From assembly GCA_017499595.2 (NCBI GenBank), contig CM039003.1, forward strand, positions 496,001-560,000: a stretch of 64,000 nucleotides of DNA. Reading direction: 5' to 3'. Positions 1,477 through 58,884 of the stretch are shown piece after piece. The notes beneath the pieces are model-generated. The model was not told the DNA's origin and did not search any database. It saw nothing but the letters and a program-made list of their open reading frames with translations. Within the stretch, counting starts at the first letter, position 1, and every line of letters begins with the position of its first letter. The DNA is from Psilocybe cubensis (Eukaryota). The translations under genes and the position numbers were made by a program.

Positions 1477-3654
1477 ATGCAATTAAAGCTTGCCGTAATT
1501 GCTGCAATTCTATATATAACTAGTGCCACTCGTGGTGGTCAAGTACCTGTCGTGGGCGGAGTCATTGGAGGGGTTCCATCCCCTATACGTACAACAAAAG
1601 AGTTTATCGCCTCGCCTCAAACAATAAGAAATGTGACGACCCCTGGTAAACTAAGGGTTGTCGAAAACTCAGGCGTATGCGGTAAGATTCAGATGCAGAA
1701 CTTACTGGGTTTTAAAACCATATGCTAACACAACATTAGAAACAACCCCCGGAATCTATCAGGCATCAGGATATGGAGACCTAACATCTACTGAGAGCAT
1801 CTGGTACATTTTTCTAGTGCATCACCTACTCATATGTAATGATTAATACGATTTTATAGGTTCTGGTTTTTCGCTTCTCGCAAGAATCCTGAAAATGCCC
1901 CTCTTGCGCTGTGGTTCAATGGAGGGGTAAGTCAGCTTTTGCGGGCGTGTACTGAGCATCACTTAAGCTGACACGAGAAAATTAAAAGCCTGGCAGCTCA
2001 AGTATGATTGGCCTCTTTCAAGAACACGGGCCATGCAGGATCACGAATGACAGTTCGTCCGTAACTCACAATCCATTTTCCTGGAACAACGAGGCGAATG
2101 TTCTGTATATTGACCAGCCAGTTGGGGTGGGCTTCTCTTACGGAGACACTAAGGTTGGTACATCGCAGGAGGCAGCAGCAGATGTTTGGTCATTCCTGCA
2201 AATTTTCCTCTCGGACAAGAGGTTCTCGCATTTGAAAGCAAACAAACTTGCCTTGTGGACCGAGTCGTGAGTTAATTTATGCATTTTGAGTCTCAGAACG
2301 GTGATTAATGGGATGTGTGTCTAGCTATGGTGGTCATTATGGCCCAACATTTGCAGCGTATGATACCTTATCAATTCGTCATAGATCTTTTAACATACAG
2401 CGATACACAGTCACTTTATCAAGCAAAATATGGCTATTCAGCAGGGAAAAATATCTGGTACGGTTCTCAACTTACAAGTACTCGGTATAGGTAATGGAAT
2501 CACGGTATGTACAGTCAAACATAGCTCAAATTAACGTGATAGCTCACATTCCACAGAATCCTCTGGTGCAATATCCTGGTTATCTTGAGTATGCTGCCTT
2601 TAACCCATACCATTATCCTCTGGTCGACGACGCGGTTCTGGACATGGCAAATCAATCGTGGACAACACCTGTAACTGGCTGCAGGGATCTGGTGAACATG
2701 CATCTATCATTTTCCTGATAAAACGAGCTAAATGCTAGCATTCAGATTATAGAGTGTAACGGGCCCAATGGTACCAACTTTATATGCTCAGAGGCTCAAG
2801 GATTCTGCAATGGCAATATTCTATCCCCTTTGGCGGGCAATTTCGATGTAATGGTGTTACATTTTAACTGGCCTTGGCTTCTTATTCATGAATTTAGGTG
2901 TACTATGTACCGGTTGAGAACCCTGACCCATACCCACCGCCGTTTGACGAATACATCAATAAAGTCGCATCAGCAATTGGAGGAGAGGTGACATGGATCC
3001 AATCTAGCGACGACGTTTACATCAATTTTGCGACAACAGGTGTGTTCATGACGCGATATTTGAGTTACGCCGCTTACCAACCTCTGTAACAGGTGACTGG
3101 ATGAGAGATTCCAGCCCAGACCTCGAGTTCGTTATCAATTCAGGAGTATGTCTGAAAATAACACGATTACACAAAATGGCTAACGAAAAGTAGGTTAGAA
3201 CGATCATCTACGATGGGGATGCGGTGAGTATTTATTTCAAGGCTCTTACATAACATCTCAGTAGTCCATGTAGGATTACATTCTGAATTTTAATGGGGTG
3301 GAAGCAATGGTATGTCAGACGTTCACATACCAATTGAACTCTGTCTGAATGATAAATAGGTCAATAATTTGAAAACGATTTGGTCCCCAATTTACAAGAC
3401 ACAGAAGTTTAAGCCCTACTCCGTGCACGGGACGCAGACCGGGATATACAAGAACGCCGGGAAGTTTTCCTATGTTCGTATCTTTGGAGCTGGACATGAA
3501 GTGCCTGCATATAAAGTAAGTTATTTGTCTGAAGGCTACTACCGCCCTCCATCATTAATTAAAATTATAAAAGTTTGGTAATTTAGACTACGGAGAGGCA
3601 GCAGCCCAGATGTTTACGCAGATTATGCGTGATGAATGCCTCTCAAGTACATAG
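1477..3654 (+). CDS. Secreted serine carboxypeptidase, peptidase family S10 (multi-exon), copy 1
   Basis: Signal peptide MQLKLAVIAAILYITSA; motifs [41 protein letters not shown] across GT-AG spliced exons; stop TAG 3652-3654. Confidence 0.92.
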
Positions 3655-4108
3655 GTATTGAGAATAAATTGGCTTGGATTCAGTGGCATGGCGGGCGGGA
3701 TATCTTGGTAACTCAAAACAGGCTATATCCGATGATTGATTATCTGTATACGTTATATTTTGCCATGGTTTGTTCAACTTAATGCTTCAAGCGTAAAAGT
3801 TACAAAATTTTACTAAGTCACTTTGGAGCGGTGTTTCATTCGGACCTTGAAATATCCAAATCCGCATACTTCCGAACGCAACCATGCTCATCTTGACCGA
3901 TCTCTGCTCTCAAAAGTCCATTATCTTGCACTCGCGGCTCTATTTTTTCTTAAAACACCGGATTTGGATCTGACGACCTGTAAAATTGAACCTGAATCAT
4001 TACCGACTGACCGCTCAAGTGGATGGAAAGAAGTTGTAACCAATATACTGTGTTTCGTAATAGACAAACTACATACGGCGATGAGTGAAAAAACTATTGG
4101 GCAGACAG

Positions 4109-5445
4109 CTATTTGACATTCCTCTTTGCCGCAGAGTCTATGTTAGCCACGAGACAAACATCTGCATATGTGAACTCGAGTGCAGGCTCGTTTCCATGGG
4201 CAAGGTAGTTTGTCTTGAAAAAATTGGACTTGGCGGGTTTCTTGATCCATACGATTGGGGTGCATTTAATGTATTTGTGGTGAATTACTTTGGCATTGTA
4301 CGCATGGGCAAGATATTCGACGATGTCATCTTCGTATAGACAATCCTGAAAGTCGACAAATTGGTCCACAAGGCAAGAGCCCGTCCTATATCCTTTGGGG
4401 GGATAGTAGATCGCTTTGAGGGAGACGTCGATTGAAAGGGATTTACAGATGCTCAGGGTATCGGCATCGCTTCCTTTGAGGCATTCAATGAGGTTAGAGA
4501 GTTCGGTCTTTTTGGGATCGATGGGGTAACGATGAGCCAGACTGAACCCTAATAGACCGCCATTAGGAAGCACGTTTGGATCGGCCAGGAGGGCGGCTAA
4601 CGACTGTTTGAGTTTTTCAATGTAGTCGGCAGTCATCGAAAGCGGCTTCAGGGGTTTGCTCGAGGTTTTTGTCAGATACAAGTTGTAAGTGAGGGTGACA
4701 CGGTAGCCAGAGGTAACAAGGGTCACTTCGTGTTCTACATCGCTGTAAAAGGCAACAAATGCGGCTTTGGGAATATTGTCTGAGCGCACTGCCAGTGCGG
4801 TATCGAACACTTGCTCGTTTCCCGCGTGTCGAACGATCAGGGATCCTCCCTCGTGAACGGTTGGCAGCACAACAACCAACGATCCAAACATATTCTCGTT
4901 ACGCGGGGTGTCTACATGGGATTTAAAGAATGATCCGGGGCCTTTGAGTTATTTGGTATGAGCATCTACAACGTAGTCCGCAACTTGAATTGCTTACCGT
5001 ATACATTGAGCTTGTACAACTCAACCTCAATAGAGTTACCCTCAATCTGTGAGCCTAGAAGAGAGTCCCGAATGGTATCGAGAATGCCGCCAGTCAAAGG
5101 AGAGAAATTTATGGCAAACTGGGTGGCGTCCAACTTGCCAGCCTTGCGATAGGTTTCGTCCAAGACGTCCTGTTTCTCGACGCCGAATGTGGCCTTTTGA
5201 CACGAACCAGCTAAAGCGGCCAGTTGATCATCTGTCGGCTTGCTGAAATCGATTTTTCTGATAATTTGTTAATCCCACAGTGAGCATAGCATTTGATATG
5301 GGACTCACCCTTCGGATCCGTTGATGGTGGTGTAGTAAAGCTTTGACGTCGTTTCAGTGAGTGATACCGCACCACTGCAGTAGGTTATGTGGTTAATATT
5401 GCTGAAAGCAGATTGGATGGCTTTGAGAGATTTGTTCGAGGACAT
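4109..5445 (-). CDS. 2-oxoglutarate/Fe(II)-dependent dioxygenase (prolyl-hydroxylase-like)
   Basis: Exons give YKLNVYG, FFKSHVDTPR (HxD), MFGSLVVVLPTVHEGG, FYSDVEHEV (distal His) and GYRVTLTYNL; ATG at 5445. Confidence 0.88.
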
Positions 5446-6831: not shown

Positions 6832-9034
6832 ATGCTTCTCTCTTTTGCAATCAGTGTTTTACTGCCCACGGCCAGGGTTTTTGGAGGCCAAATTCCTGTT
6901 GTAGAAGGCGTAATTGGCGGGGTACCCTCAGTGTCTTCCACAAATGAACTCCTCGAGTTCCCTCAAGTTACTTCCAATATTACGACTCCAGGAAAGTTGA
7001 GAGTTGTTGAAAACTCTGGAGTCTGTGGTGAGTAACAGATGACAGCTGGCCTTGATTTTGTAACGTTTTAATGTGATACTAGAAACTACGCCGGGAGTCT
7101 TTCAAGCATCTGGGTACGGTGATCTAACAGCTACGGAGAGTATATGGTACATTCATTTTTCTTGTTGTCGCATCTTCAGAAACTGAAGATTGTATATCAG
7201 GTTCTGGTTTTTTGCGTCTCGAAAAGATCCCGAGAACGCACCCCTCGCATTGTGGTTCAACGGAGGAGTGAGTTCATTCCGGGTTTAATGGGTGTCGTAT
7301 CTTGACCTCAGTGCTCCTCTAGCCCGGAAGCTCTAGTATGATTGGTCTGCTCCAGGAGAATGGCCCCTGTCGGATCACAAACGACAGCACATCCGTAACG
7401 CTGAATCCATTTTCATGGAACAACGAAGCCAATGTGCTTTACATCGATCAGCCTGTTGGCGTAGGCTTCTCCCATGGTGACACAAAAGTTGGCACTTCAG
7501 AGGCGGCAGCAGCAGATGTGTGGTCATTCTTACAGATCTTCCTCAACGACAAGCGTTTTTCGCATCTGAAGAAGAATAAGCTTGCGCTTTGGACTGAATC
7601 GTGAGTTATAGCTCTATTGTCATTATAATATTGGGATGAGACCCTGATTGGTGTATGTCGCACAAGTTACGGAGGCCATTATGGTCCCACATTCGCGGCG
7701 TAAGTTGTAGATAGTCACAGTGAAGAATTAGAGCTGACATGGGGTTCCCATTCAGTCACTTCCTCAAGCAAAACTCCGCAATCCTGGAGCGGAAGATTTC
7801 AGGAACGATCCTTAATTTACAGGTTCTCGGTATTGGTGATGGACTTACGGTATGACGTATGAATAGCTATAACAACCAAACATTTAGTCTGACATATTTG
7901 TATGGCGCTAGAATCCGCTAGCACAATATCCTGGATACCTCCAATATGCCGCTGTTAACCCTTACCACCCATTAGTAAACGAGACCGTTCTTGCAGCCGC
8001 CAATATTTCGTGGACGACACCCAAGACGGGTTGCAGGGATCTGGTCAGTAATAGAAAATAACTGTCGTTGGTCATGGGATTGATGCCGTTCCAAATATTA
8101 GATCATAGCGTGCAATGCACCCGTCTGGAACACTACCGTATGCTCACAGGCACAATCCTTTTGTAACAACAGAATTTTATCCCCTTTGGCTGGAATTTAC
8201 GATGTAAACGCTTCTGTTCACGCTTATTGTAACATTTAACTTGACTTTGCTACATGCAGGTGTATTATGTTTTGACACCCGATCCCGATCCGTATCCGCC
8301 TCAAATCTCTACTTATCTCAACAATGTAGCGTCAAAAATCGGAGGCGAGGTTCAATGGTCGCAGTCGAGCAGAGTTGTATATGCCAATTTTGCAAACACA
8401 GGTATGTCAGCCTCATTGTGGTCTGTTGTGGCTCAGACGTAAATTGATGAACTTGAAAGGCGATTGGATGAGGGATTCAAGCCCTGACCTTGAATTCGTT
8501 ATCAATTCCGGAGTATGTTTGAGCACCCCCATCATGTTCTTGTAGCTCACTCGCGCCGCTTTCGTAGGTCAGGACCATCATATACGACGGTGACGTTGTA
8601 AGTCCCAGTCGATTTATGGTTTCTTATACTAAGCTGTGTATTAGGACTACATTCTAAACTTCAATGGTGTAGAGGCAATGGTTGGTGATCTTCTCCGACG
8701 TGCCAGAGCTAATTGATGTTGAACTACGTTACGTATAGGTGGCCGACCTGAAGACTATTTGGTCTCCTCTTTTCAAGCAGCAAAAGTTCAAGTCTTTCTC
8801 CGTCCGTGGACAGGCTACTGGGCTCTACAAGAATGCCGGGAAGTTCTCTTACGTCCGAATCTTTGGAGCTGGGCACGAAGTACCGGCGTACAAGGTATGT
8901 CGTTTAGTATAGCGTGCTTGTCTGTCTTTTGTTGCTTAACAATCACATTACAGTACGGGAAACTTGAGTATGGAGAGGCTGCTGCTCAAATGTTTACGCA
9001 GATAATGCGTGACGAGAGTCTTTCGAGCACATGA
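6832..9034 (+). CDS. Secreted serine carboxypeptidase S10, copy 2 (tandem paralog)
   Basis: Signal peptide; same motifs ([35 protein letters not shown]) and matching intron positions as copy 1; stop TGA 9032-9034. Confidence 0.92.
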
Positions 9035-9249: not shown

Positions 9250-10624
9250 CTAAAGGATGCCTTCATACATTGGTTCATTCAATGGGTCTAATATCGGTCT
9301 GTGGAGATCAATAGAGGGAGTTTTACGCAGGTAGTCATCAAGAGCTTTTAATGCACCACCAGCCATCAAACGTTCCTGAGGGTCAGGTACACAGAGAGGT
9401 AGCCATAATCGGTCGACCTCTTCCATGCCAGTCTGATAGGAAAGTCGTCATTAGTAATTCAGAAGATTATCTAGGTTTGCAGACTCACCACAAAGTTAAC
9501 ACGGAGATCTTCACCCAACTGCCACATGTCGAGTTTAAAGGGGCAATATGGCTCCTTCGTTCTGAGTTCTGGTGCAATGTAGCGACCGAACTGGTCTAAG
9601 TCCCGATGAAATGATGTGCACACCCTATCTGACTCTAAAGAGTCCTCTAGAAAGTCAACTGCAGTTTCAAAATCAATCATGTATACCCTGGGGCGAGTCA
9701 CAGATGTACGTTTGGACAATGATTCGGGCATCCATTCAACCATAAAGTTAGGTAGATACAAGTCCTAAAAAATCCGTAAAACAAGGAGACCTTGAGGTAA
9801 AAAGTAACTTACGCGATGCGCAATAAGTTTATCATGGATATATGCAGTTGTCTGTAAGGTTATTGGTAAATACATGTCGGATCTGGGGTAGAAAGAACGT
9901 GAACTCGCCTCGAGGGCCTGGAGCACCATGTACAAGGCATCTTCGACAGAGTTTGAATGTGTATAGTGAAGGACTTCACGGAGATCGAAAATAAGCTTTG
10001 GGACAGCGATAATGACGATATCTTCGAAAGAAAACTCGTGCAATATGGGCAGAATGTGATTGCTGCTTAACATATGATCCGGAGGGGACACTAGCCGCTT
10101 TAATATTCGCAGGTGGGTTTGGCCTTCGCCCGATATAGAGACAACACGCAGAACAACATCGCGAACACCGTTCATACGAGCAGCGTGGTGAAGGCATGCT
10201 GTCAAAACACTAAACGTGTTCCACCTTACCAAGGATTTATTCGGTTTGTCGTGTGAAGTCAGGTAGAGAAAGTTATCACCCTGTGGCGGAAGGTCATTAT
10301 TCCAAACTTGTTGAAAGGTTGTTGTCTTCCACAGCTGAAATCCATTCCGCTCGAAAAGAGGTCGAAGTTCGCCCCAGGCCTCAATGTAGTCTTCCAAGCT
10401 GAGAAATTTCCAAATTTCAAGATGTTTTGGTAACTGAAACAAACGCAGAATTGTCTGAACATGGTGCAATGAGCTGGATGGTTACATACCTTCTCGCGAC
10501 GGGGTAATTTTAGGTCCTTTTTACTTGACTGTTTAACAGAAGGTAGAAGAAGACTGCCGGCTGATACAGCCAAGGTCAGAGCACAAAGCGCCAGTAATGA
10601 GGTGTATCGATTGTCGTAAATCAT
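9250..10624 (-). CDS. Agaricomycete atypical protein-kinase-like protein (AgaK1-like), paralog 1
   Basis: N-terminal hydrophobic segment; RDVVLRVV, NHILPIL, IAHR/DLYLPNF, IDFETAV, IAPEL, CPFKLDMWQLG, ERL; stop TAG 9250-9252. Confidence 0.85.
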
Positions 10625-11212
10625 TGGTGGTCCGATAGAATCTTGCACGCGTTGCACTGTTGCTTCAAAACTGTCAACAAATATTCATCGGACTTGGAGT
10701 TTGGTCATATTGATGTCGTTAGGCTTTTCCGACTAATCCTGTTTTTCAAAGTCCGAAACGGGTTCGATTGGGATTCGCGTGATGTTTTATGTTGGCCATC
10801 AAAACATAATCCCAACAGTGCAAAAAACGGTATGGAGGCAACATGGAGGGTGGGCTCAAACCAACTGGATAAGATATACGCATACCATACTCGGCTTGAT
10901 TTGACTTGTGCCTCCTACCACCAGGAGCTTTCCCAAACGGGACAAGAGCAAGAAAGAATGCTGGAGGAACTACGAAAAACGCAGAGGTGAGCACAGATAT
11001 GTAAAGATCAATGTTCAATTGACTAATCTAACCACCTCTATACCTTGACCGCGTACCCAGGTGATGTCCCAGATGATCGAGAGTAGATAGAAAGACGTAC
11101 CTGGGGGTTAAAGCAGGAAAGACGTCTGGCAGGTAAAGGGAAAGCTGTGAGTAGCAAAATAGGCTGAAACTTCGTGGCTCGACACGGCGAGTGAGTGCAG
11201 AGATTTTCATAG

Positions 11213-11850
11213 GTCTACTTACGTGGGACAGATTATTCAGTCATCTACTATCTTTATTAGATAGAGATGGCAAGCTTCAGCACTGTGATGAGCACGGCGC
11301 CGCTATGCTCACGGAAACGCGCGCGCGCTGATCCAATTTCTGGTATTTTCCTTTTATTTACATATGTTTTTCCTTCATAGAATATTCTAGCACTGATCTC
11401 CGGGAATGAACTCCTATCCCAAGTCTATGTAGTACTTAAGGACTACGTACACAATTAATAACAACTTTTGGATTCCCCTCTCGGATTTTGTCTACGTCTC
11501 GCTCTCGCGCGCGCCCTCGTCGTCTTGTCCCCTGCGGTGATTCGAAGCTAGCGTGGTAGCTTGCACCGCCGTCCCCTCTCGTCGCGCTCCGCTTCGTTTC
11601 GTTTCGCTGTCGTTTGGCTAGAAGCCGTGTGGAGCACGCTCGCTCACACACGCGTTCTGCGAGTCTTGTAGGTGTTGTTGGGTTGTTTCCCACGCCCTCA
11701 GGAGCTCGTTGAGCGTATCAACTGTTTGGCCTGGGACCCTACACGTCCGGCTTGCCAGGGGTCCAAATTGCTTATGACACATGTGGTTTAGACACGGAGG
11801 GGGGATATCGCTTCCTCCTCTCCCACAGGTCAGAAATGATAGTAGAGTAT
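11213..11850 (+). pseudogene. Relic of the last exon of an MFS transporter paralog, interrupted by a solo LTR
   Basis: 11220-11285 and 11721-11840 align by eye with the last exon of the MFS gene at 15224-15437 (gtgggacagattatt, ctatctttattagata, ctgtttggcct, ggggtccaaattgc, atatcgcttcct), with deletions and stops. Confidence 0.8.
11286..11720. mobile_element. Solo LTR (435 bp)
   Basis: TGAT...ATCA termini, 4-bp duplication ACTG at 11282-11285 and 11721-11724; removing it rejoins the MFS-homologous flanks. Confidence 0.75.
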
Positions 11851-12378
11851 TCTGAGTGCAATGCGCATGGCCTTTTCCCATCTCAATGATAGTCATAGCA
11901 TGGGGTTGATTGTACACAAATAGTACAAGCAGACCGAAATCCAGATAAGACTCTGATACGCGCCCAAAAAGCTCACTTACTACCTAGGTTTAAAGCCACA
12001 GTCATCTGGATCTCTGTCGAGAAATACTCAAATGCTTTTTGGGACTACAAATATTACCACCGACCTGATTATTGCCTGCAATCCCCATGCTTTATGTTCT
12101 CTTCATCTGGGGACCTCATAGACTACAAAGTGATCACTTGTCTCACGGGAAAAATCCTACATGTGAAGATGTCAGTTGTTTGGGGCTCTACCATGAGGTC
12201 ATTGCTTAAAACCTATCAGATTACACATGGAGACCAGATATTCTTTGAGGACAGTGGCAGGCGCCTTCTGCATGAGTCTATTTTTAATTCAACACAGCTT
12301 CTTTGATATCATGAGGATGGTATCGTTTCGTTTCTTGAACATTATAAATGCCTGTAACCCTCCTATTCTTCAGTGAAA

Positions 12379-13235
12379 ATGCTTTTTCTGCTTCTTCTCT
12401 CGGTAACCCTTCTAGATACTGCTCTCGGTGCTGTAAATGACGCATGCACTGCCGGAAGTACTCCAGGAGTATGTTTGTCAACCAGTACCTGCTCTTCAGC
12501 AGGCGGAACATCACACGCAGGATTTTGTCCCAATGATCCATCGACAGTGCAATGTTGCACAAAAGCATGTGCAACCTCAGGAATTTGTCGCTTTTCCAAT
12601 ACATGTAGTAGCGGACTCACTGAAACTGGTAAATCTACTAGTATTGTGGAGTATAAATGTTTTTTGATGCCGCGTTATCAGGCTTGTGTCCCGGCCCCAG
12701 CAACTTTGTTTGTTGCTTCCCTTCCGCAACAAGCAGCTGTGCACCTCCGGCCGTAAACGCTGCCACACTTGCGCTTATCAAGCAATTTGAAGGATTTGTC
12801 GCGAGTCCCGCTCCCGATCCCATTGGTCTCCCGACTGTTGGTTATGGACACCTCTGCCAAACTACAAATTGTGGGGAAGTTCCATTTGCCTTCCCTCTCA
12901 CCCAAGCTCAGGCAACGAGCCTGCTCAACACCGATCTCAAGACGTTCACGGCATGCCTTACAAGTGATATCAGTAACGAAGTTATTTTGAACGACAACCA
13001 ATTTGGTGCCTTGAGCTCATGGGCATTCAATGAAGGATGTGGCAACGTTGGAAGCTCTACCCTGATATCGAGACTGAATGTAGGACAGGACCCTGACACA
13101 GTTGCTGCGCAAGAGTTACCAAAGTGGGATATAGCTGGAGGTTCTGTCCTTCCAGGGTTGGTGACCCGACGGGCAGCTGAAGTGAAGCTATTCCAGACGC
13201 CCTCCAATGTTATTGCTCATCCTCCACAATGTTAA
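12379..13235 (+). CDS. Secreted GH24 (phage/T4-type) lysozyme with two N-terminal Cys-rich modules
   Basis: Signal peptide; one intron 12629-12681; FEGFVASPAPDPIGLPTVGYGH (E-D-T motif), NQFGALSSWAFNEG, LPGLVTRRAAE; TATA-like TATAAA at 12343. Confidence 0.92.
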
Positions 13236-15437: not shown

Positions 15438-15754
15438 AGTGTCATAGAGGCCTTATTGGGGGTGTATGTGCGCAAAACTGCGCTTGTCCACTCTCTTTCA
15501 TGTGAAGAAGGGAGATCGGATGATGCCGAAACTGCGGGAAAGGTGGTACACGTATTACTTTATCGATGAAGTTCAAATTCCAAACTTCGACCTTCTATGA
15601 ATCTTATTCTCTTAACTATCAGCCTTAACACGACCGTTATCCAATAAGTGGGAGTCTATTGCATAGCAAACACTTGGGTATGAAGGGAATATGTCAATAC
15701 TTGAACACAGTTGATGAAACTGAGAGGTTGATGTAATGTTGAGAAGTCGCAGAG

Positions 15755-17570: not shown

Positions 17571-20500
17571 CTAATGGGTAGGTAGGGTATTCAGCCAGGT
17601 GATACTCGGCATTGCATTTAGAATTGACTGCGTCAACTGGGTCCGCGAGACCTTGACGTCAGCTTTGGGGGCAAGGTTATTGTCCCAGGGGGCAGCTTTG
17701 TTTCCATTAAGGAAATCTGTCCAATAATCCAACTCTACGGGTAACGATAGCCGAACTTCCACAGTGTCTGCGTCGCCGCCATTAGGGTTAAAATTTTGGA
17801 TGTAATGGGTTATCTGGGACTTGAGGTATGGGACGACACCGTTGAGGATATTGTATATCTAGCCCGTGTGAGGTCAGTGAGTTCTTTTAGATGGTCACAT
17901 TGACGTACAAAGTTGTCATAGATATTGGGCACATTAACGTTGCCCGGATTGGGACCACGAAGGGGACTTAGTTGCACATAGCTATTGTACCAAGATACCC
18001 AGATATTACGTATACATGTATTGTCCTTCTTGAACAATCTTTTTGCCTAATTTATCTGATATTAACAGCTCTGGGGATTCGTTTAAGAAGTTAGGCACTC
18101 ACATCAAAACTGTTCAAGTACGAGGGGAGGCCTGCTGCTGCACGTAACCGCGCTACCTGCTTCGTTGGGCACATTTTATCCCACTTATCATCGTCTACCA
18201 GTTGGATCACATTTCTGTTTCCAGGAACAAGAAGGCGCTCTGTTGCAAAGTATGCATAATTCTTGAACACGTTTGCTTGTTGCTCCAGCATCACCATCTC
18301 GTCGGCTCCATTTGAGCCACCTTTGGTCTACTATTTAGCAAAAAAGGTACATAACAAGGGCCTGTAAGCTTACCGGGGTAACAATTTTGTATCTGCTCAA
18401 AGACCGAATTTGATCCTGACCTCAGATTCTGATTGACCCATTGACACCATGATCTATGGTTGAATGTATTAAGTATGACATTGCAAACCTGATTGAGTGA
18501 CTTACGGGCCCTTCTTGATCTGCCAGAGATCAGTGAACTGCTGTAGATGATCGATGAACAGCGATGCTAAAATGACAAATAAACTCGAGTTACAAAGGCG
18601 AAGACAAAGACAAGAATTCACCCATGCTAACTTCGTAGATGTGCTCCCGTCCGTAGATTGCTCCTCCACTTTCATCTGTCGTCAGAACTGGAATGCCGGC
18701 GGCGTTTAAAATGTTGGGTGGGTATGGGGTGTACGTCCCCAATGTAGGCTTTAGTTGTTCAGCAGGTTTTACGTCAAAGTATGTAACGATATCTGTGCCC
18801 GAGTAACCTGACATGTCCAGGGAGTATGCTGGACATGTGGTCATTGTGGCTGTCCCACTGGCACGCCGGAGTATTTGATCAGTTTGGTCATCCATTGTCT
18901 GATCATCCTTTGTGTATGTAGATGAATAATTGGCTGTGATATCTTCAATCCAACGCGCTTGAATATCAGCATATTGCCCTAGGATAGATAGTAGAAATGG
19001 TTGAATATAGAAAATTCGAAACAGTACTAGAGCACTCACCCGTGGCGCCTTGGTCATCAATATTATTATCCGAGTAGCAATAACAATCAGTGGCCCCGCC
19101 GACACCTGCAATCTCATCTCCTACAGTCGGGCAGGTAAGAAAACCGGGCAAGAAAGGTATAGCTCGGCGTTTCAAAGAAGGATCATGTTCGATTGCAGAG
19201 GCATCAGCGGATCCAACAGTCCATGAAGTCAGCGGCTTCTGAATTGTAACAGCCTCCAAATCATTCATACTGCGCTTTTGAGATGTCGGTGAGCGCTTGT
19301 TAATCACCGCATATGCCGGTATGTCCTGGTCATGGGTCATGAGAACGCTAGACCCGAGCTGTCCAGAGCCACGCGCTTCGTATGTGTAGGAAGATTCGTT
19401 GATGCTACGTCTGCTATTGCCTGATCCAGTGCCCTCATTGACGGAGTCGAAGCATGATCCTCCGAAGGGGAAATCAGCAGAGAAGAAGTTCTTTCTGTGA
19501 CATAAGTGAGCAATACGCATTTGAGCACAGAAACTAACACGCACACAACTGGGTCAGCCCTCCAGAATAATACAGAACCAGTTAGTCCAGCGTTAAGGTT
19601 GATTCCATAGTGCTGTTCAAATGTCAATCGCGATCCATGTAATAGTATTCAATTAATTACCGGATTCACGCAAAATGTGAGAGCCGACTTCCCGTAGGAT
19701 TTGTCAGTTCTGAAGGTACGAAATCATGAAATTGAAAGGCTTACAGACTGGCTCACGCTTCCAGAAATGGAAACTCCTGCATACATGTCTGCTTCCGCGA
19801 AAACCTGGAGAAGACATAAGCATTGACAGGACGGTGCAAAATAGGTTCGCCCTACCTCGGCATCTATCAAGGACCCTCCAAGTACGTTGACACCAAGTTG
19901 TAGTGACGGGATCTACAGAACTGGGGTGTCAGGGTATGCCTGAAAGGAGGGGCAGTTATACGAACAATATGAGCCTGACAAGGAAAGGTGAGTAGAATGA
20001 TAATTAAAAAAGTAGGGCTGCGTACCTGAAGAGAACCTTCCAAGTTGACGTTGTACCCTACAGCAAAATCATATCCCACGTTATCGCTCGTGGAATTAAC
20101 AGGAGACGATGGATCCTCCTAAAATGCGTGCGCAGGGTTATGTGTTGAAAATAAAGTTTGGTGAATCGAACATCAATGGAACTTGCCTCGTCAGGGTTGT
20201 CGTCTGCGAGACCAAAAGCATAGTTGATTGGCTATAAATGTGTATGATAAGTTCAAATCAACTGGAATGAAAAGGTTGAATTTGCATACCGGAAATGTAT
20301 ACCCAATAGTTGCAGTGTACCGTCCAGACAGACTCAGCTGCCCCGTGAGCTCCCCGTAGAGGTGAAGGGATGGACCAAGTGTCAAAAGACCAGGATAGTA
20401 AAGTCCTGGGAAACCAAATGTTGCCAGTTCACGCCTGCCACTGGTGTAGTGTGCCTCTGCAAGTCCAGAGATTGTAAATGACGCTTGGGCGCCTGCGCCT

Positions 20501-23500
20501 GCGTCAAAGAATACGTATGCCTGTTGAACTGCGGGAGGGACGATGGTCGCTTCGAGGTAATAACCGAATTGACTGGTGATCTGAGCCGTTCCAGTGACAC
20601 TGATATCGAGGCTGGATGAGAAATTCGGGCACTGTTGCTCTGCGTGGAATATCGTGTACGTATCTGACCACTGAATAATGCGTTAACGAAGCATTGTGAC
20701 ACAAATAAAGGCGTATACATACATGATAATCTCGGCTGACTGTCTTCGAAGAGCGGACAGTGTTAAGCTTCTTCAGCCATGCATCGAATGGTCCAAACCA
20801 CCTCTTATCGTACTCTAAGGGTTGGTGGAAATCACGTCTTCTCCTGGTGCTGGTGGTGCCAGAGTCAGGCGGACTGTTAACGATGGCGTCCCTGAATAAA
20901 AATATTAAATATAGCGAAATGAACGTCAGGCAAATAACGTGCCAGTAGCCAGGGATATCCGTCTGTGGATATGAAGTTAGTAAAAACAGATGTATACCCT
21001 GAAGTTACATACCACATCGGCTCTCATCCTACATTCAGACAAATCAGCGGCTTCCAAACCTATGTCAATGAAAGAAGCTTACAGGACAGGCCCGTTATCC
21101 TCCGGTATGGCAAGGAAATTGTAGTCAAACGACAGGGAATATACCATTTCATTGGTAGGCTTCTTCGCCTGATGTTCTTGGGACAAGGAATTCTGGTCCG
21201 TATGTTCAGTCAAAGAAACTACACGAGCGTAAGGTCCCAGACCACATGATTTGGGCATTTGGATAATGGTATGCTCAGCTTGGCCAATGAAAACGTGGCC
21301 ACAGCCGGAGTCATCATCGTCCATTGATTTTGAGCAATATGCCAGAACCTTCAAAATCGGGTCAAAGTTAAGCCCCCAACCAATAGACGTTTGACTAACC
21401 GTCTGTGGCTGATCACTGGTCGAATCGCAGCCAGTAACCACCCAATCAGATGCGATATCCATTGAGCTGACGGCACTGGGATTTGGGGATGAAATAAAAA
21501 GCTCTACCCGCTCAACCAATTAAACATTAGAAATTTAAATTGGGAAGCAAAGACGCTACCTCCAAATGGACTATCATTCTCTCTCCCGTCATCACCAATT
21601 CCACTTGAACCCGCACCGGTTGAAGATGTGCTCGAAGTGCCAGTGTTATCATCGAAGTCGACAGTAAAAGTGACCGGTTCATCTGCGTCCACAGTAGAAG
21701 GGAACACGTCGCTTACAGGAATGGGGACAAAAGACGACCCTATTTTTCACAATATAAATCATCAATATAGGGTCCGGAAATGGGTCAATGTTCAAGTTTA
21801 CCTGAGGGTGGGTCACAGCAATAATAACGTTTGTTATTTCCAAAGCATTGACTGCTTGCATCTCCCTGAATATCGCTAACTGATAGGTAGCGTGAGCAGG
21901 CCTATTGATGCAGTTTTACGACCTGTACTCACATATGGCAATCTGACCAGGGCTGCACACGGCATTTAAGCACGCAGGTGGGTCTCCAACCCATTTACAA
22001 TTTTTATAACCAGCTGATTGTCGAATTTATTTTATAGTTGAACTACATAGTTAAAGATGACTTACGTTTGCAGCAGACCGGTTTTGTGGGTTCCAAGCAC
22101 TCTACAGGGCATAGTGCAAACGGTCCTTGACCCGGGGGGGTATCAGCGCAGCCGTCGATGTCGATGGGCCCCAAATTTACGTGAGTTTGAGCAATAAATG
22201 GGGGATCACATGTCTGTGAATCACAAGCTGAGGAAAGGAAACAAAGTGGTTTGATATTCCAACTAACATGATCGAGAATTGCCACTCACGTCCGGTAGAA
22301 CACGCTCCAGCTTGTGGGTCCCCCGATGAGCAGCAGAATGCTTTAGAACCCTGAATGCATGTTGGATGTCCATCATCTCCAGTTTTATCCAGAGCGAGGA
22401 CGATTTCCCCAACATTGCATCGTCCATTACAACTTGTCCCCCCTCCTCCTCGCCACGAACATTTCTGAGGTTCGTCTCCTTTAGGACAGCAAAGGCGTGC
22501 GAGCTTGTTCTTCGGACATGATCCTCCGGTGGGTATTTGGCTCAATCTTGTCAGTGAATCGTATCCGGGGGGACATTGTTGACCACAGCCTATGAATGGT
22601 TGACGTTGAGGATTGAGTTGAATTGTGAGCCTAAAATTGAGCGTACCAGTTACTCGGCACTGATTGCCGGACTCGATCGAAGACGGCGTATTGATGCCGA
22701 TATCGGGATACAGGCCAGTTAGAGCGGTATACAAGTTGTCGTCCTGGTCAAGGGACCATATCATTGTCCCTTCAGGAGTGCAAGTAACCATCTATGTGAT
22801 TCTTTGGAAATATTGTATAACTAACCTCCTAGACAAATGCTATTTGCATAATTCAACTTCATTTGCAATGTTTGAGCGTCGTCGTACTATGGTTATGTGA
22901 GATGTGTGTTTCAATGGAGAGTAAATGCAACACATACAGATACCCATTGATTGTCATTCCACGTTATATACTTCACAGCCGCAGCCTCGTCAAATACAGG
23001 AATAGCGTTGCTGGTGCTGTCCAAGAGTTTCTGAATTTCTGAGAACATAAGTGTCCCAGAGTTAAGGGAGCACTCGCCCGGATCGCCTCCACCGGAGAAA
23101 GCACAGCCCGGGGAGCTGCATTGCTGATTTAACGAGCTTTTAATTAGCGTCGAAGATGGGTGTATAAATCTCGGATATGAAATCTTACCCCGTCCACAAG
23201 TGTGAAAGAACGCCCGTAAAAGCCTATCCCCATCACCATCTGGGATGGATCGATCTGAACATTTCGAAAAAGTTGCATGGTGTCCATAATCTCTGTTAAA
23301 TTTGTGTGAGCTAGGACGAACGGGCCGACATTTGTGTCGTTCTTATCCCAGACGCCATGTAGATCGTAGGTCATGATGTTGACCTAAAATACATTGAGGA
23401 ATAAACTCAAGACAAGTTGAACATTTACATACCCAATCAGCCGATTTTAAAAGAGCTGGAAGATCAAAGTGCTGAAGGTACCAGTAGCTTGAGGGTGCCG

Positions 23501-24759
23501 TAAAGGTTAATCCGTATCCTCGAGGGGAGAAGGCTGATTTAATTCTGGATAAGAAAATTGGGAAATTATCTTTATCTTCTGGTGCTCCTCCGCGCTCGGG
23601 TGCCACAGGATACTCCCAATCAATGTCAATTCCGTCAAATCCATAAGCCTGTAATACCCCAAGTGTGCTTTTAATAAATGTATTTGTCGCACTGAGGCTC
23701 CCTGCCAAATTGCTGAAGATATGTTGTGTCGGCTAAGGGGTGTTTAAATTTTATAAATAAAAATATCAGAAGCCTGTCAACCTACAGGATCGTTAAAGTT
23801 CCATCCGCCAATTGACAGGAAGACTTTAAGTGTTGGATTTCTCTCTTTTAAAGCCGTGGTTCGTATCCAAAGGGAACTGTCGTTTGCCGCCATTTCCTTC
23901 AGAGTGAAGTCCTCAGAAATAAGGGCAAATGCAAAGTTAACTGCCATCGTTGTTCAGTTCAATGGTTCTACCAAGGTAGTATTAAACTTACTATGCGTCA
24001 AAGTCTCCGCTGATATTAACTCTGGAGGGTACATATCACAAGCCCGACTGTCGCTAGCCACCGCCCACGCCTAGATGAGAGTAAATTATCTACCGGTAAC
24101 TCGGAGAATAAAGGAACTGACCTCATAGTATCCAATACGTCTGTGTAGAGCCGTTGCCTGGTTGTCCCCACAAGACTCTTGAGCTGGTGGCTTACAGAAA
24201 GACTGGCAACCAGTCTCACAGAAATCTAATTTATCACAATAGTCAGGTATGCCCATTCGAAGCGGTCCAAAATCTACCCTCTGTAGTTCCGCAGAAGCCA
24301 AACTATATCAAACATGGTTAAGCGTTAATCAATGCAATATACAAGCGGACTCAGACCTGACTGCAACAGACGTTCAACGGGCACGTAGAATTCGCAACAG
24401 CAGCAAATTTTCCGCACTCTGCTACGGCACCGCAGTTTGAGGTACAAGGTCCACCTGAAGACACAGGAGTGCAGAAATCAGGTCCAAATCTTTTTCACAT
24501 TATACATCATTCAACGGATAATATTTACTTCCAGTATGCTCGACTCACCCACAAAAACCGGACTCCGAGTTGCAACATGCCCCGTTTCCACATGGAATAG
24601 TTTTCGTGCAACTACCAACTGGTAGTCCTGTGGTGTTTCCCTGGGCATTAACTAGTCCCCAATGATATACGAACACTTGGAACAAAATGTCAGCATAGAG
24701 AAGTGCTGCAAGAGTCTTGGAAACCCACGAAAAAAAATTAATGCAGTATGAAGTAGCAT
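17571..24759 (-). CDS. Very large secreted subgroup-C (killer-toxin-like) GH18 chitinase: signal peptide, two hevein/CBM18-like domains, GH18, Cys-rich repeats, beta-rich domain, C-terminal extension
   Basis: Spliced N-terminus MLLHTALIFF/LFVYHWGLVNAQ; CCNSESGFCG and CPLNVCCS/FGFCGTTE; FLSIGGW, GFDGIDIDWEYP (intact DxxDxDxE), MTYDLHGVWD, WSLDQDD; downstream exons link through canonical splice sites to stop at 17571. The single-gene join of the 3' part is inferred. Confidence 0.85.
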
Positions 24760-25691
24760 GACAAGATACTGCAAAGAGATGCTTTGCCCACTTGCAAACT
24801 GGTGTCATTTTTAATCGACTCGAGACCAATGCAGCTGATACAACACGGTCCGATAAGTGACTGGGTCATGAGGGTGGCGATAAAAAGAATGTTGGCTCGG
24901 ATATTTACTAGCTACGGCATTCCTCACATTGAACCTCGAATCGAGAGGACCTCGCGGTCCATCGGTGCTGACAGTAGCTTCCATGAGCATGCTACACACG
25001 TGGAACTAAAACGAAATGCTTGCTCCATTCTTTTGTTGCGTACTTGTCGGTTGTCGTAGCCAGTTATAATGCATGAGTGGATACATATGTAACAATTGCA
25101 ACGCTGGATTCCTTTCTAATTAATAAGTTCTAAACCCTCATGACCTTTAACGTGCCACATCCTCCAACTTTGTTGAGCATCCAAGTCACCATCCCGGACC
25201 GACAGCATTTCCTCAGATGTAAACAATATTTCATTGAAACATGAACCTTCTAGGTAGTTAGAAGAACGGTCTTAGCCTAAATTTAAAATTGCCACAAAAC
25301 AGGTATAGAAACCTTTGTTCCAATTACAATGTGCCAGCTCAACCGCCGGATTGCCTATACCAGACTTCCGTGAAGCGAGGACCGAAGCATTGCTTGCTCA
25401 CTTATCAATAATTACGAGGTGAAGGCTATAAAAAGACGGTTTTGCCTTACTCTGCCGAATATCAAATTTGTCAAGAGGAAGCAACGCGCCTCGTGGTTCC
25501 CTGTCGAACTTTTTCCAACCTGACCGAGTCAGATTCTGATTGTAGCGTCAATAAACCGGTCTACACGGGTTTATCCACCGAGAAATAGCATGTACTTTAT
25601 AGTTTATAGTGGAACTGATTTGTATTCCAATTCCCCAGCCTTTTCGTCAACTCTGGCAATTGCAACGCTGCTGTGAGAGTCAAGGAAAACC
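24760..25691. promoter_or_regulatory. Putative bidirectional promoter between the chitinase and LysM genes
   Basis: 932-bp gap between divergent ATGs; TATAAAAA at ~25427; exact 14-bp direct repeat CAATTGCAACGCTG at 25093 and 25657. Confidence 0.5.
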
Positions 25692-28600
25692 ATGTCAATA
25701 ATACTGAGGCTCTCACTACTCGTCTTATTTTCTTTCCTACTCCCTGTTTATGCATCTGTGAACAAAATCAAGCAGAAGGAAATAATCCAGAATGAGAAAT
25801 TCCATTCCAGTTTACTCAAACAACTCGCCGACTCTCGGACAAAGACTGATGTATTCAACGATACATTGTCACCCTCAAATCCATCTTTGGATTTCAGCTC
25901 GTCAAATTCCTTACCTTTGCTTTCAACAAATGCCAGCGTCAGCCTGCAGATATACACATCGGACACACTCCCATCCAATCCAGCTCCCAATAGCGTCTGT
26001 GCAGCAGCCATGACAGCAGCAATACCTTGTAACTCATCAATTCCGCTCATGGCGTTAGTTGCGTATCTTATACTTCCAAGGATCACCTATTGATAATAGA
26101 TATTATATGCCTCTAGACTTGGCCCATATCTCTTCACTAACGACCTTCCCACTCTCTGCACCGACGATTGTTTACATGGACTTGTATCGTATCGTGCAGA
26201 TGTGGTTTCAGCTTGCGGGAACTACTTAATCACTGATACAGGGGGCAACTCGTATCCCCCAACACTGGCAGTGGACTATGTTTCTGGTCCTTATACCGTG
26301 CAGTGTCTCAAAGATCCCGACAGCGGAAATTTTTGCGGCACTGTCATTGAATCTTACAATACAACGGACGGGCTACTGTCGCTTCCAACAAATGAATTAT
26401 GCACATTTTGTACGCTGGAGACTCTGAATGCAACGTTATCCAACCCGACTAGCTTTTCGGATGACCTCGCTGATATCCTTTCAAGTGCCATCAACACGTG
26501 TGGGACGTGGGTATTTCAAAAAGCATCAATTTTGTTCCCTTAAGCTGACCTCATCCAGCGATTTTGAACAGTATAATGTCTCTTCAACGGGCGACCAAGT
26601 TGTCATATCAACACCGTTTGGGGTCAATTCTACGACCGCGCCTACTGTTGACTGCACAATCACCGGACAAAACATCTCGACGACTGAGGCGACAACCTGT
26701 GCGGATGTAGCTGCCCAATATAGCGTGAGCGAGTACGACATTTTCTCATCAAATCCTCTCCTCGACGCCGATTGCAACATTGAGTCTGGAACCGTGCTCT
26801 GTGTTCCTCAACAATGTACCACTTATGTTATTGCGGTTAACGATACGTGTCAGTCGGTCGCTCAGCTGGCGGGCACAGTTCCTGGCACAAGTCTCAACGT
26901 GACCGCGTCCCAAATCCAATCATTCAATCCCGACCTCGGAACGTACTGTCAATTGATTTCACTTCGTGTGGGGAAAGCAATCTGCTTGAGTCCAAATGGC
27001 GGGTGGCCTTCGGTAGGGGTGACTAGCGCAGGGAATCCATCTGGTACACCTACCGCCGCTGCACCTATCCCAACCCCCACTGTTAACGGCACAACATCCG
27101 CTTGCGGGAAATACTACCTTGTACAAGGCGGGGATATTTGCCAGACTATTTGTCTCACCAATTCCATCACGTTTAGTGATTTTCTTACCCTTAATCCGGG
27201 TGAGTAATTTAATTTTGCATACCTTTTCGCTGTGGTATTTAACTTGAGGCTCAGAGGTTGACGCCAACTGCACCAATTTATGGCTTGGATATAACTACTG
27301 TGTTGCTCCCTACCCACCATTCTCATCCGTAACTGCCGCACCACTCCCCACAACCAATTATACAAGCGCTACTATCTTCAGCTACCCTATTCCTACGGCG
27401 AATTACACCATTACCTATACGTCTAGTCGCGTCACACCTGCTGGAGTTCCAGCTCCAACAAATATTGCTAACGGAACACGACCCGTTGCTTGCGGGAGCT
27501 ATTACGATATACAGGTGAATATCGCCCGTTTTTTTAGGTTTCATGACGCTTTATTGCAAATCATTAATCTGAGTCACGATAGACCGGCGATACCCTCGAC
27601 TCTGTTTCTGAATCCGTTGGTGTTGATGCATCCCTCCTCGCAACATGGAATCTTGAACTCAGCAGTGGTGTTTTACCCCCTGTTGGCTCCGCTATCTGTG
27701 TGACCTTTCCAGAAGGCAATTACACTTTACTCGCCGCACCGCGTCCCACAAATACATATGCCAATGCCACCACAGAATGTGCACAATACTACACCGTCCA
27801 AAATGGGGATGGATGTAGCTCCATTGAAAGCTCATTTGCACTTACAAACTCACAATTTGACCAACTTAATCCCGGCTTAGCAAGCAGTTGTACGAATCTC
27901 GTCCTCGGGGATGCTTATTGTGTTCTCCCTACCGCTCCCTTCTCTTTATCCAATTCTACCGGCCTACCGGATAACGTTGCGCCGGGGACAATCACTGATG
28001 GATGCACCACCTACTACACCGTCAAGTCTGGAGATTCTTGTACTGTGGTGGAGGATAACTTTAACATAACCTTGGCGCAATTCACGACATGGAATCCAGA
28101 GATTGACAGCCAGTGCACCAACATTGAGGTTGGATTGGCGTATTGTGTTGCATCCTCCTCTTCCTCGTCAACTGGTCCGCCCAGTAATGTTGCGTCAGGG
28201 ACAATCACAGATGGATGCACTGATTATTACACTATCGTATCGGGAGACTCTTGCCCTGCTATTGAAACTAAATTCAACATTACTATGTCACAAATCACGA
28301 CGTGGAACCCTGAGATCAACAGCGAATGCACGAACATACAGCTCGGACTCGCATATTGTGTTGCATCCAGCCTGGCCCCACCAACCAGTGGACCTCCCAG
28401 TAATGTAGCATCCGGGACTGTCACATCCGGGTGTACATCATATTACACCGTAGTCTCAGGGGACTCCTGCTCCGTCATCGAGGCTAAATTTGGCATCACA
28501 TTGGCTCAGTTTACGACATGGAACCCCGAAATCAATAGCCAGTGCACAAATATTCAGGTTGGCCTGGCGTATTCATCAGAAAAACTACAACCTCTAGCAC

Positions 28601-30142
28601 TTGCGGGAGCTCACTTTCACTAGTAGCTTTTTTCCCTTCCACCACTTTCACCAACACTTTTCAAACCACTTTCATTACTTCCGACACTTTCATCAACTTT
28701 TTGCTCTTTCTTTAATTATCCAAAACAATTTTTCATATTTGGTTTAGTTTATCTCAGTACATGTTTCTTGTTTCTTTGTAGCACTACCGAATGCTTTGAA
28801 TTCATTGTGTTGTATACAATATCACTTGTTAGCAAAGGAGAAATTCAACATCAAATTTGTTGAAGTTCGTTCGGGCTCCGATTAAATATTCACGTGATGT
28901 TCAGATAACAATCATCGTATCGATTAATCTTTCTTTCTTCCCGTCCTCACACATCTCCGCAGTTATGTTTGTCAGTTTAGGTTAAAAATGTATTGTTCGT
29001 GAGTTATATTCCTGCTTCAATGCGTTCTGACATGACTTGCTGACTTGTTTTAATATGTTTAGAAGTATCTAGGTTCTACCCTTCGTCTATCTCCTCCCTC
29101 CATCTATCCCCCCTCCCCTCCCTCCCTTCAACAAACCAAACCAAACCTACTCCTCCTCTCCTCCTCTCCTTCTTCAAGCTTTGTTGCACGGCAGATTTGT
29201 AGTCATTGTACGGATGCTATGATGGTGGAAATGGTATGCATCTGCTATTGCTTGTGTTGCCTATGCTGACCTCAGTGACCTCAGGCCAATGACCATATCG
29301 CCGCTTTTGTGTCAATAGTAGGAGAAGTGGAAGGTGATATCTGATACGGTAGTTAACTGGTATGTCATTCTGCCGTTGGTCTTCTATACCCTCAAAGGTA
29401 GCGTTTCGTTGTATATCAATTGTTGGTTGGTAGTTTGTTATGTAGTTCTTATGTAGTTTCATGTATACCTATGATACCTGTCTTTCAGAATATAATATAT
29501 TATCTCAATTAATATCAACAATCAAGCGAAAAAATGAACTAGCTAACAACACTTCCGAAAGTGTGAACATCTAGTTTGTCGCTTTTGATCACCCTTTCAG
29601 TACTTTCGAAAGTGAAAACACTAGCTGTGAGAAATGGGGTCTGGGTAGCTGCAAGCGTCAAACACTTGCGCACTTTTGGCACTTTTTGGCCCTTTTCTCA
29701 CTTTTGAAAGGTGCGAAAGCGTCTGCTAGTGGGGTTGTACTTTTTCTGATGTTGTGTTACTTCAAGTTTTTTGGGGTCATCTACCTCGGGCCCTCCGTCC
29801 AACTTGGCTTCTGGGTCACTCGCGAATTGCACCAGCTATCATACTGTTGTTTCTGGAGACAATTGCCCCGCCATTGAGACATCTTCACATATCGCAGCAT
29901 CCGATTTCTTCAAGTGGAATCCCGAGGTATCGCATGACTGCTCAAACATCCAGGTTGGGGAGGCGTATTGCGTAGCAGGTGGTGGAAACCCGTGTAAAAA
30001 GATATACGTAGTTCAATCCGGAGACTTTTGCTTTGCGATCACGCAGAGTCAGAATATCACCCAGCAGCAGTTGATCGCGCTGAATTCTTTCTTAGACACT
30101 AATTGTGATTTGGTTGTCGGAGAAGGTATATGTGTTGGATAG
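25692..30142 (+). pseudogene. Secreted multi-LysM (CBM50) protein with a Cys-rich N-terminal domain and about 10 LysM domains, disrupted by a transposon at 28574-29751
   Basis: Signal peptide; repeated fungal LysM units (CxxYYTVxSGDxC...WNPEI...CTNIxxGxAYCV). Removing the insertion plus one TT restores AYCVTSSFLGSSTSGPPSN in frame to stop 30142; as is, translation stops at 28623. Confidence 0.88.
28574..29751. mobile_element. Non-autonomous TIR DNA transposon (1178 bp), CACTA/CMC-like
   Basis: 19-bp TIRs CATCAGAAAAACTACAACC / GGTTGTACTTTTTCTGATG (1 mismatch), 2-bp TSD TT, multiple subterminal CACTTT/AAAGTG repeats, no recognisable coding capacity. Confidence 0.88.
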
Positions 30143-37058: not shown

Positions 37059-37316
<258 letters not shown>

Positions 37317-58877: not shown

Positions 58878-58884
58878 CTCCCCC

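Follow-up and report, generated by a model that had tools for sequence, protein, structure and literature searches.

A chitinase and LysM gene pair kept together across Agaricomycetes, within a proposed antagonism locus of Psilocybe cubensis

Do the genes for secreted proteins near the start of a 64,000-nucleotide stretch of the Psilocybe cubensis genome form one locus for antagonism of bacteria and fungi? The stretch (assembly GCA_017499595.2, contig CM039003.1, positions 496,001 to 560,000 of the forward strand; hereafter the window) had earlier been read from its letters, and the original prediction was that positions 1477 to 30142 are an island of about 29 kb whose wall-attacking and wall-binding products target polymers of N-acetylglucosamine (GlcNAc). 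We found that only two of these genes, one for a giant secreted chitinase and one for a protein with many LysM units, are conserved as a pair, and that the remaining neighbours have no kept linkage. We lean towards reading the locus as a conserved two-gene chitinase/LysM module and not as a 29-kb island, a reading in which the chitinase tail would be cleaved, its end would be an effector and the LysM protein would be protective. Judged from domains and gene order, the pair appears to be a killer-toxin-like chitinase/LysM arrangement in basidiomycete form, with a conserved modular tail.

The window DNA is fungal and rich in introns. Gene families were assigned with Pfam on stop-to-stop open reading frames (ORFs) of the window, exon pieces were also scanned at E<=1, and signal peptides were judged by eye. 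UniRef proteins that bear the label Psilocybe cubensis matched the exon queries at 100% identity (P0001 for the chitinase and P0206 for the LysM protein), and sampled words of the window were present at 81-87% in DNA sequencing runs of other strains. Runs X5 and X6 are DNA of other strains; X10 and X11 were taken as RNA, and their contigs proved to be spliced. The X10/X11 contigs leave 13.9-17.0 kb and most of 21.1-26.9 kb uncovered, from which nothing was inferred.

Linkage of the chitinase and LysM genes in other fungi

The pair and its parts lie in the window as follows.
17571 to 24808, minus strand: giant secreted chitinase, about 1,750 amino acids, colinear with a 1731-residue homologue.
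22824 to 24703, minus strand: chitinase head, two hevein-type (CBM18) modules and GH18 (Glyco_hydro_18 E 7.5e-18 and 1.1e-9 on exons).
19480 to 20860, minus strand: all-beta tail domain of DUF7223 type, beginning at the dibasic site in EYDKR↓WFG (DUF7223 E 0.0045, profile relatives).
17574 to 18840, minus strand: C-terminal tail domain (model, conservation).
24809 to 25691, no strand: intergenic region of 883 bp between the divergent chitinase and LysM genes, whose head-to-head order is also found in environmental loci L002, L004 and L009.
25692 to 28623, plus strand: LysM gene as in this strain, with signal peptide, Cys-rich N-domain and 8 units (exon model; LysM E 7.7e-39).
28574 to 29751, no strand: non-autonomous terminal inverted repeat (TIR) element of 1,178 bp in LysM unit 8 (strain comparison, inverted repeat).
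29752 to 30142, plus strand: severed LysM 3' end, units 9 and 10 (LysM E 7.6e-14, 2 stretches).

The tail exon at 20290-20670 was used as a query and found 85 longer proteins, most of them 1,400-1,790 amino acids long, with GH18 and often with CBM18. These homologues span Agaricales, Polyporales, Corticiales, Hymenochaetales, Phallales and other orders, and the family is expanded in Mycena sanguinolenta (11 of the 85 hits) and Roridomyces (6). The LysM exon at 26560-27198 found 22 longer proteins, of which 20 were counted as homologues once P0206, the match of the query to itself, and a remote protein from Hypoxylon were set aside. Fourteen of the 20, from 13 species, are on a contig equal in size to the one which carries the same species' chitinase homologue. 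The matched species are Phlegmacium, Punctularia, Coniferiporia, Mycena crocata, M. vulgaris, M. sp. CBHHK59/15, M. indigotica, M. amicta, M. latifolia, Agrocybe pediades, Clathrus, Fomitopsis serialis and Favolaschia (twice). Neighbouring locus numbers were seen in Coniferiporia (001222/001223), Clathrus (001266/001267) and Mycena latifolia (1340516/1340517). Ten related loci came from a scan of metagenomes. Three of them (L002, L004 and L009) have at least 5 kb of upstream sequence, and each of the three has a LysM homologue there, on the opposite strand. The pair is kept together across Agaricomycetes.

The other genes of the stretch gave a different result. Agaricales have many GH24 homologues (589 hits), and among the best 120 of these 589, GH24 and chitinase are on different contigs in all four species listed for both: Collybia nuda, Agrocybe pediades, Panaeolus cyanescens and Mycena pura. 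Homologues of the GH24, MFS, 431-residue ORF, kinase-like, S10 and 2-oxoglutarate (2OG) oxygenase genes were found in none of the 10 metagenome loci, whose flanks are short. The original prediction had named unlinked genes in relatives as the observation that would speak against an island, and most of its genes are unlinked there: linkage held for the chitinase and LysM genes, and was seen for GH24 in 0/4 species and for the others in 0/10 loci.

Favolaschia has two linked pairs, and the Psilocybe cubensis label has a second protein of each kind: a chitinase-tail protein, P0002, which is 75% identical, and a LysM protein, P0207, which is 78% identical. The pair may duplicate as a unit.

The chitinase, its tail and the LysM partner

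The giant chitinase is one gene, as the original prediction had it. In tblastn, 24703 down to 17574 is colinear with residues 2-1731 of a 1731-residue Phlegmacium protein (P0005), so the GH18 region and the tail belong together. P0001, which is 100% identical to the window over the query exon, matches GH18 (PF00704) at E 1.8e-61, and the homologues carry PF00187 and PF00704. The GH18 exons at 23144-23732 contain the catalytic motif FDGIDIDWEYP, the motif being defined as DxxDxDxE (PMC13348850), and both hevein modules are intact when two short introns are read correctly. The GH18 domain is catalytically complete by its motif and is predicted to be an active enzyme. The start codon and signal peptide of the window gene are placed with uncertainty; the homologues have a plain signal peptide. 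RNA contigs from X10/X11 contain seven CT..AC joints in the tail, and a further contig has a 34-nucleotide exon between 20892 and 21082, so the tail has minus-strand transcripts which are processed.

The tail is about 1,250 amino acids long and has no significant Pfam family. DUF7223 matched it at E 0.0045 in the window and at E 0.004-0.07 in 5 of the 22 family members; a literature search for DUF7223 found 0 papers. The atlas score of the tail was 0.97 to clusters which carry DUF7029 and DUF7223. A 1,067-residue tail-only paralogue was modelled with AlphaFold2 from a 42-sequence alignment, at a mean predicted local distance difference test score (pLDDT) of 63.5. The model has a small alpha/beta part (residues 93-220), an all-beta part with strands of 20-27 residues (257-550), and a disordered linker between this and the C-terminal part (about 730-1067), which is mostly helical. 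The beta domain starts at a dibasic site, (K/R)R↓W, in which the K/R position is kept in 40, the R in 41 and the W in all of the 42 sequences. The tail has two more RR/KR sites, which are conserved less than this one.

Structure comparison was used to look for known folds in the tail. Foldseek with the whole tail model found 0 matches at E<=0.001. In VIA the best match was the barrel of the autotransporter NalP (Z 5.7, root-mean-square deviation (rmsd) 9.8, 167 residues), with further outer-membrane barrels next, at Z 4.8-5.2; these matches of the modelled beta domain may reflect its long antiparallel strands alone. A PDB profile search gave 193 hits; the 60 listed were GH18 chitinases or chitinase-like proteins, every one aligned by way of its GH18 part and none by way of the tail. 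The C-terminal domain was then modelled alone from a 45-sequence alignment, with pLDDT 90.6 and a predicted template modelling score (pTM) of 0.89. Its near-invariant residues are R-E-H-x-Y, followed by E, N and K. It has no solved relative in Foldseek (best E 0.79) or VIA (best Z 4.3). A complex prediction for the Coniferiporia pair, which put the LysM N-domain together with the C-terminal tail domain and did not use the alignments, scored 0.00 and gave no verdict.

The first tail domain (P0002 residues 100-209, about 21082-21504 of the window, minus strand) gave six weak matches to phage tail-tip and baseplate hub proteins (Z 3.8-4.2, rmsd 3.4-4.0, 72-80 residues), which we note as a lead. 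For the C-terminal domain, the atlas leads GmrSD_C, AHH and HNH scored 0.77-0.78, too weak, and were set aside.

Distant relatives show how the end of the tail varies. A profile built on the tail, starting at the dibasic site, matched 638 representative proteins at E<=0.001, and 48 of the best 150 were scanned with Pfam. Among these 48, GH18 was found in 13, DUF7223 in 16 (reaching E 1e-7 to 8e-12) and DNase_NucA_NucB, near the C-terminus, in 10. Of those 10, five are complete giants with CBM18 and GH18, 1,640-1,783 amino acids long, and the DNase-type alignment carries the signature CDEFPFAS. The two subfamilies were aligned with hhalign (probability 100, E 1.6e-51, 399 columns). The aligned columns span the first domain of the tail, the dibasic site and the beta domain, ending ahead of the C-terminal domains, so the end domain has been swapped among related proteins. 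By these domain assignments, the C-terminal domain differs by subfamily, with a NucA/NucB DNase in the sister group. PF14040, with motif CDE[FY]PFA, was found neither in the window exons nor in the 28 family members scanned. The GH18 cluster with the NucA/NucB DNase is mostly from Ascomycota, according to a single atlas row. The DNase-type alignment had no match in the viral contigs scanned, and the 10 metagenome loci included none of the DNase type.

The LysM gene was modelled with exons at 25692-26053, 26117-26506, 26559-27199, 27255-27514 and 27583-28623, the total gene being 25692-30142. RNA contigs confirm the intron at 27200-27254, and Pfam places LysM exons on stop-to-stop ORFs at 26428-28623 and 29750-30142. 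The gap between these ORFs is a strain difference: DNA contigs of X5 and X6 connect 28571 straight to 29752 and skip 1,180 bp. The skipped DNA is an element whose ends are inverted repeats of 19 nucleotides (28574-28592 and 29733-29751), 95% complementary, with a TT flank on each side. With the element in place the frame stops at 28623 after 8 units, and with the element removed in silico it is open to 30142 and has 10 units. The original prediction of a 10-LysM protein is thus correct for the gene without the 1,180 bp and not for the frame of this strain, which ends after 8 units. The deposited protein P0206 has the same foreign end residues as the window frame. An RNA contig spans the left junction, so transcripts run into the element. 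As an effector-type LysM protein the product is secreted and multi-LysM, but its reading frame is not intact in this strain and ends after unit 8. The insertion is a natural allele, ready for comparison between strains.

The LysM orthologues differ in unit number, through tandem gain and loss of near-identical units. They conserve the Cys-rich N-domain and an N-terminal helix (FH..LL.QLA.SR), neither of which falls in a family.

Several minor observations concern the inserted element and the DNA beside the gene. The element is present elsewhere in the X5/X6 genomes, at divergent loose contig ends. It is spliced on the plus strand (introns at about 28999-29062 and 29233-29283), and RNA contig depth there is above that of the LysM exons. 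Its 2-bp TT flank is unusual. Just 3' of the LysM gene, at 30300-31100 on the plus strand, X11 contigs show four short GT..AG introns in a tandem repeat of about 110 bp. A long ORF was looked for at 30.3-31.1 kb and none was found; this spliced RNA may be non-coding or repeat-derived.

Comparison with known systems and possible roles of the pair

Subgroup-C (killer toxin-like) chitinases are proteins of 150-250 kDa with CBM18 and LysM, and in Trichoderma the gene tal6, with seven LysM units, adjoins the chitinase gene tac6 and is co-regulated with it (PMC4392113). The window pair resembles tac6/tal6 in having a very large secreted GH18 protein with CBM18 next to a gene for a secreted non-catalytic multi-LysM protein. 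This likeness was judged by architecture and gene neighbourhood: the window chitinase has about 1,750 amino acids by colinearity and intact hevein modules, and a LysM-only gene adjoins it. The two systems differ in that subgroup-C chitinases have internal LysM units and the window chitinase does not, in that the window pair is of a basidiomycete lineage, and in the extra conserved Cys-rich N-domain of its LysM partner.

A second likeness is to killer toxins. Zymocin alpha/beta, from Kluyveromyces lactis pGKL1, is a chitinase precursor which is cut by processing (10.1101/2024.10.25.620242; PMC13348850), and Heneghan et al describe nuclear clusters in Pezizomycotina with a chitinase, a gamma-toxin and sometimes immunity and LysM-only genes (10.1101/2024.10.25.620242). 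What is shared with the window is a chitin-binding GH18 precursor, processed in zymocin, and the LysM-only genes of some clusters. A chitinase precursor on a Debaryomyces killer plasmid has ChtBD1, GH18 and a NucA/NucB fragment (PMC8472843), and that domain also occurs in the sister-group relatives of the window chitinase. As far as the cited account goes, zymocin-like clusters in Basidiomycota are reported only in Panaeolus, Mycena and Trichosporon and are ascribed to transfer (10.1101/2024.10.25.620242). Those are rare transfers, whereas the window chitinase family is widespread in Agaricomycetes and intron-rich. The layout, and the layout alone, also resembles bacterial polymorphic toxins, with a modular order and a swapped C-terminal domain of which one variant is a NucA/NucB DNase; unlike them, the window chitinase is a eukaryotic secreted protein with no immunity gene identified, and toxicity of its C-terminal domain is putative.

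Altogether these comparisons bear on a module which would act on other fungi. A Kex2-type protease would cut the precursor at (K/R)R↓W, as in zymocin alpha/beta processing. The chitinase head would bind and open the chitin-containing walls of other fungi, and the freed tail would deliver its C-terminal domain as an effector. The LysM partner would coat chitin, and might either shield the producer's own wall or regulate the enzyme, as proposed for Trichoderma Tal6. In the published accounts consulted, chitinase/LysM pairing and killer-toxin-like chitinases are described for ascomycetes and yeast plasmids, and basidiomycetes are taken to lack such loci apart from a few transfers; no account of the Agaricomycete pair was found, subscription journals being outside the scope of the search. 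A pair present across many Agaricomycete orders, with a long tail and an exchangeable end, is a testable candidate for the dealings of mushrooms with other fungi.

Several points weigh against this reading. The tail had been called toxin-like, and the searches gave this description no backing: the C-terminal domain matched no toxin family in Pfam and no toxin fold in Foldseek or VIA, and the fold matches of the beta domain are weak (best Z 5.7, rmsd 9.8). LysM (PF01476) was found inside the chitinase in 0/28 scanned family members (0/6 and 0/22) and in no window exon of this gene. No gamma-toxin-like or immunity gene was seen beside the chitinase, in a search made without reference toxin or immunity sequences, and the 883-bp spacer has no ORF of at least 70 amino acids besides the first exons of the two genes. 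The LysM gene is truncated here beside an apparently intact chitinase, which therefore need not have a partner of full length, although this one keeps the N-domain and 8 units. Contigs of equal size are an indirect sign of linkage, and 6 of the 20 LysM hits were unmatched, being on very short contigs or from species without a listed chitinase hit. A role in remodelling of the fungus's own wall also fits the same anatomy.

That last alternative is in our view rather unlikely: the pair would serve hyphal branching, fruit-body growth or autolysis, and the tail would anchor or regulate the enzyme and not be an effector. It has a precedent in Trichoderma, where Tal6 acted on the fungus's own spores and tac6 and tal6 are expressed in hyphal network formation (PMC4392113). 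The pair is common to saprotrophs, mycorrhizal fungi and wood decayers, and the tail is transcribed in runs which are not known to include competitors. What speaks for conflict instead is that the lineage expansions (11 in Mycena sanguinolenta and 6 in Roridomyces, of 85) and the DNase swap are commoner in conflict genes than in housekeeping genes, and that the partner LysM gene tolerates truncation in this strain.

The module reading can also be taken further, to a self-contained modular killer toxin: a GH18 head, a Kex2 cut, a DUF7223 domain which would aid membrane crossing, an exchangeable C-terminal warhead, and self-protection by LysM. The system would then be an ancient basidiomycete counterpart of the zymocin-type systems and not a recent transfer. 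We hold this stronger version to be unlikely.

Neighbouring genes and the proposed island

The other features of the stretch are as follows.
1 to 549, plus strand: Ty3/gypsy-type retrotransposon relic, integrase C-terminal SH3-like part (Pfam SH3_Tf2-1 E 2.4e-19), just outside 1477 to 30142.
1477 to 3654, plus strand: serine carboxypeptidase S10 gene A (Peptidase_S10 E 3e-29 and 7.6e-5 on exons; last exon ends at 3654).
4109 to 5268, minus strand: 2OG-Fe(II) oxygenase-like gene (2OG-FeII_Oxy_3 E 2e-7).
6832 to 9034, plus strand: serine carboxypeptidase S10 gene B (Peptidase_S10 E 5.8e-28).
9250 to 10624, minus strand: divergent kinase-like gene with an N-terminal hydrophobic stretch (HRD, DFE, APE and DxWxxG motifs by eye).
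10990 to 12300, no strand: zone of repeats and relics, with multi-copy DNA and an MFS 3'-end fragment (depth, self-similarity).
12379 to 13235, plus strand: LYS-type GH24 lysozyme, exons 12379-12628 and 12682-13235 (Phage_lysozyme PF00959 E 1.2e-37).
About 14081 to 15447, plus strand: MFS_1 transporter (MFS_1 E 4e-16).
15755 to 17050, minus strand: Ser/Pro-rich ORF of 431 amino acids, no family (no Pfam match at E<=1).

The GH24 muramidase named in the original prediction is well supported by its Pfam match (E 1.2e-37) and by PDB 8b2s, the Trichophaea saccata muramidase, to which its domain aligns over 174 residues at E 8.9e-79. The E/D/T catalytic positions were read after those of T4 lysozyme. 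The protein has a signal peptide, two 6-Cys modules and the GH24 domain, in that order, and exon 2 is covered by X11 contigs. Its likeness to LYS1-3 of Coprinopsis cinerea and to 8b2s is that of a closely related GH24 domain; the Cys-module N-terminus is colinear with, and so shared with, the C. cinerea lysozyme homologues. The T. saccata enzyme has an SH3-like wall-binding domain, and the window N-terminus is a different module (PMC10394673). The C. cinerea LYS proteins are induced by bacteria and are lytic and antibacterial by experiment (PMC6461984). By these family matches, the GH24 gene belongs, as an ordinary member, to the LYS-type family of known antibacterial enzymes, and is separate from the chitinase/LysM pair.

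The two secreted peptidases of the original prediction are likewise borne out, as tandem S10 genes (PF00450), both with a split Ser motif (WTES-YGG) and the His motif GAGHEVP, and with signal peptides by eye. They are 77% identical in DNA over 290 bp, which marks gene B as an old tandem paralogue of gene A on sequence grounds. For the MFS gene, said to be an exporter, the family held, and export is putative, the closest solved relative being the glucose transporter GlcP at E 1.3e-5. The membrane-anchored kinase-like gene has its motifs by eye and its N-terminal hydrophobic stretch; no Pkinase or other Pfam profile matched its three exon pieces at E<=1, and its best PDB match was TSSK6 at E 0.24. 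The 2OG-Fe(II) oxygenase gene and the 431-residue Ser-rich ORF had been overlooked in the earlier list. A solved relative of the oxygenase-like gene was sought and none was found at E<=0.01; the gene has no link to cell walls.

The relics of transposable elements which had been reported are present: the gypsy-type integrase tail at 1-549, multi-copy DNA at 11000-11700 (depth 449 against 82 at 11000-11663 in run X5), and the MFS fragment at 11751-11839. That 90-bp fragment shares 81% identity with the MFS gene's 3' end (15342-15430), a match which marks it as a relic of an MFS duplication.

Could the whole of 1.5-30 kb still be a co-regulated island, with genes switched on together against bacteria and fungi? 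The idea has a precedent in the loose grouping of genes that bacteria induce in C. cinerea, where 62 of 108 such genes co-localise within 100 kb and one region has an MFS and a GH24 lysozyme gene (PMC6461984). Targeting of GlcNAc polymers is plausible for three products (GH24, GH18 and LysM), and signal peptides were recognised by eye on five. GH24, MFS, chitinase and LysM are also colinear in other strains (runs X5 and X6), but colinearity inside one species is trivial. GH24 and chitinase are apart in 4/4 species among the best 120 of 589 GH24 hits, the other window genes are in 0/10 related loci with their short flanks, and the stretch includes unrelated genes as well, the 2OG oxygenase and the Ser-rich ORF. 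We consider such an island improbable, and most of it an ordinary gene neighbourhood.

That the grouping is chance and annotation bias, secreted-enzyme genes being common in agaric regions rich in transposable elements, would suit a window chosen after the fact from a large scan and the relics and recent copia element around the stretch, but it is highly improbable, since the pair recurs in 13 species and 3 environmental loci in the same orientation, which chance does not explain and which contradicts it for the pair; for the other genes it may hold.

Ordinary genes follow past 30 kb of the window (for a second MFS, for SMC and for an Rrp6-like exonuclease), as does a copia element that is intact. 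At 34779-39878, on the plus strand, are tandem paralogues without a Pfam family, in which 34914-35398 and 38941-39428 are 74% identical. The copia-type retrotransposon at 58696-63330, on the minus strand, has an intact gag-pol ORF of 1,395 amino acids, and its 182-bp long terminal repeats are 100% identical, so its insertion is recent.

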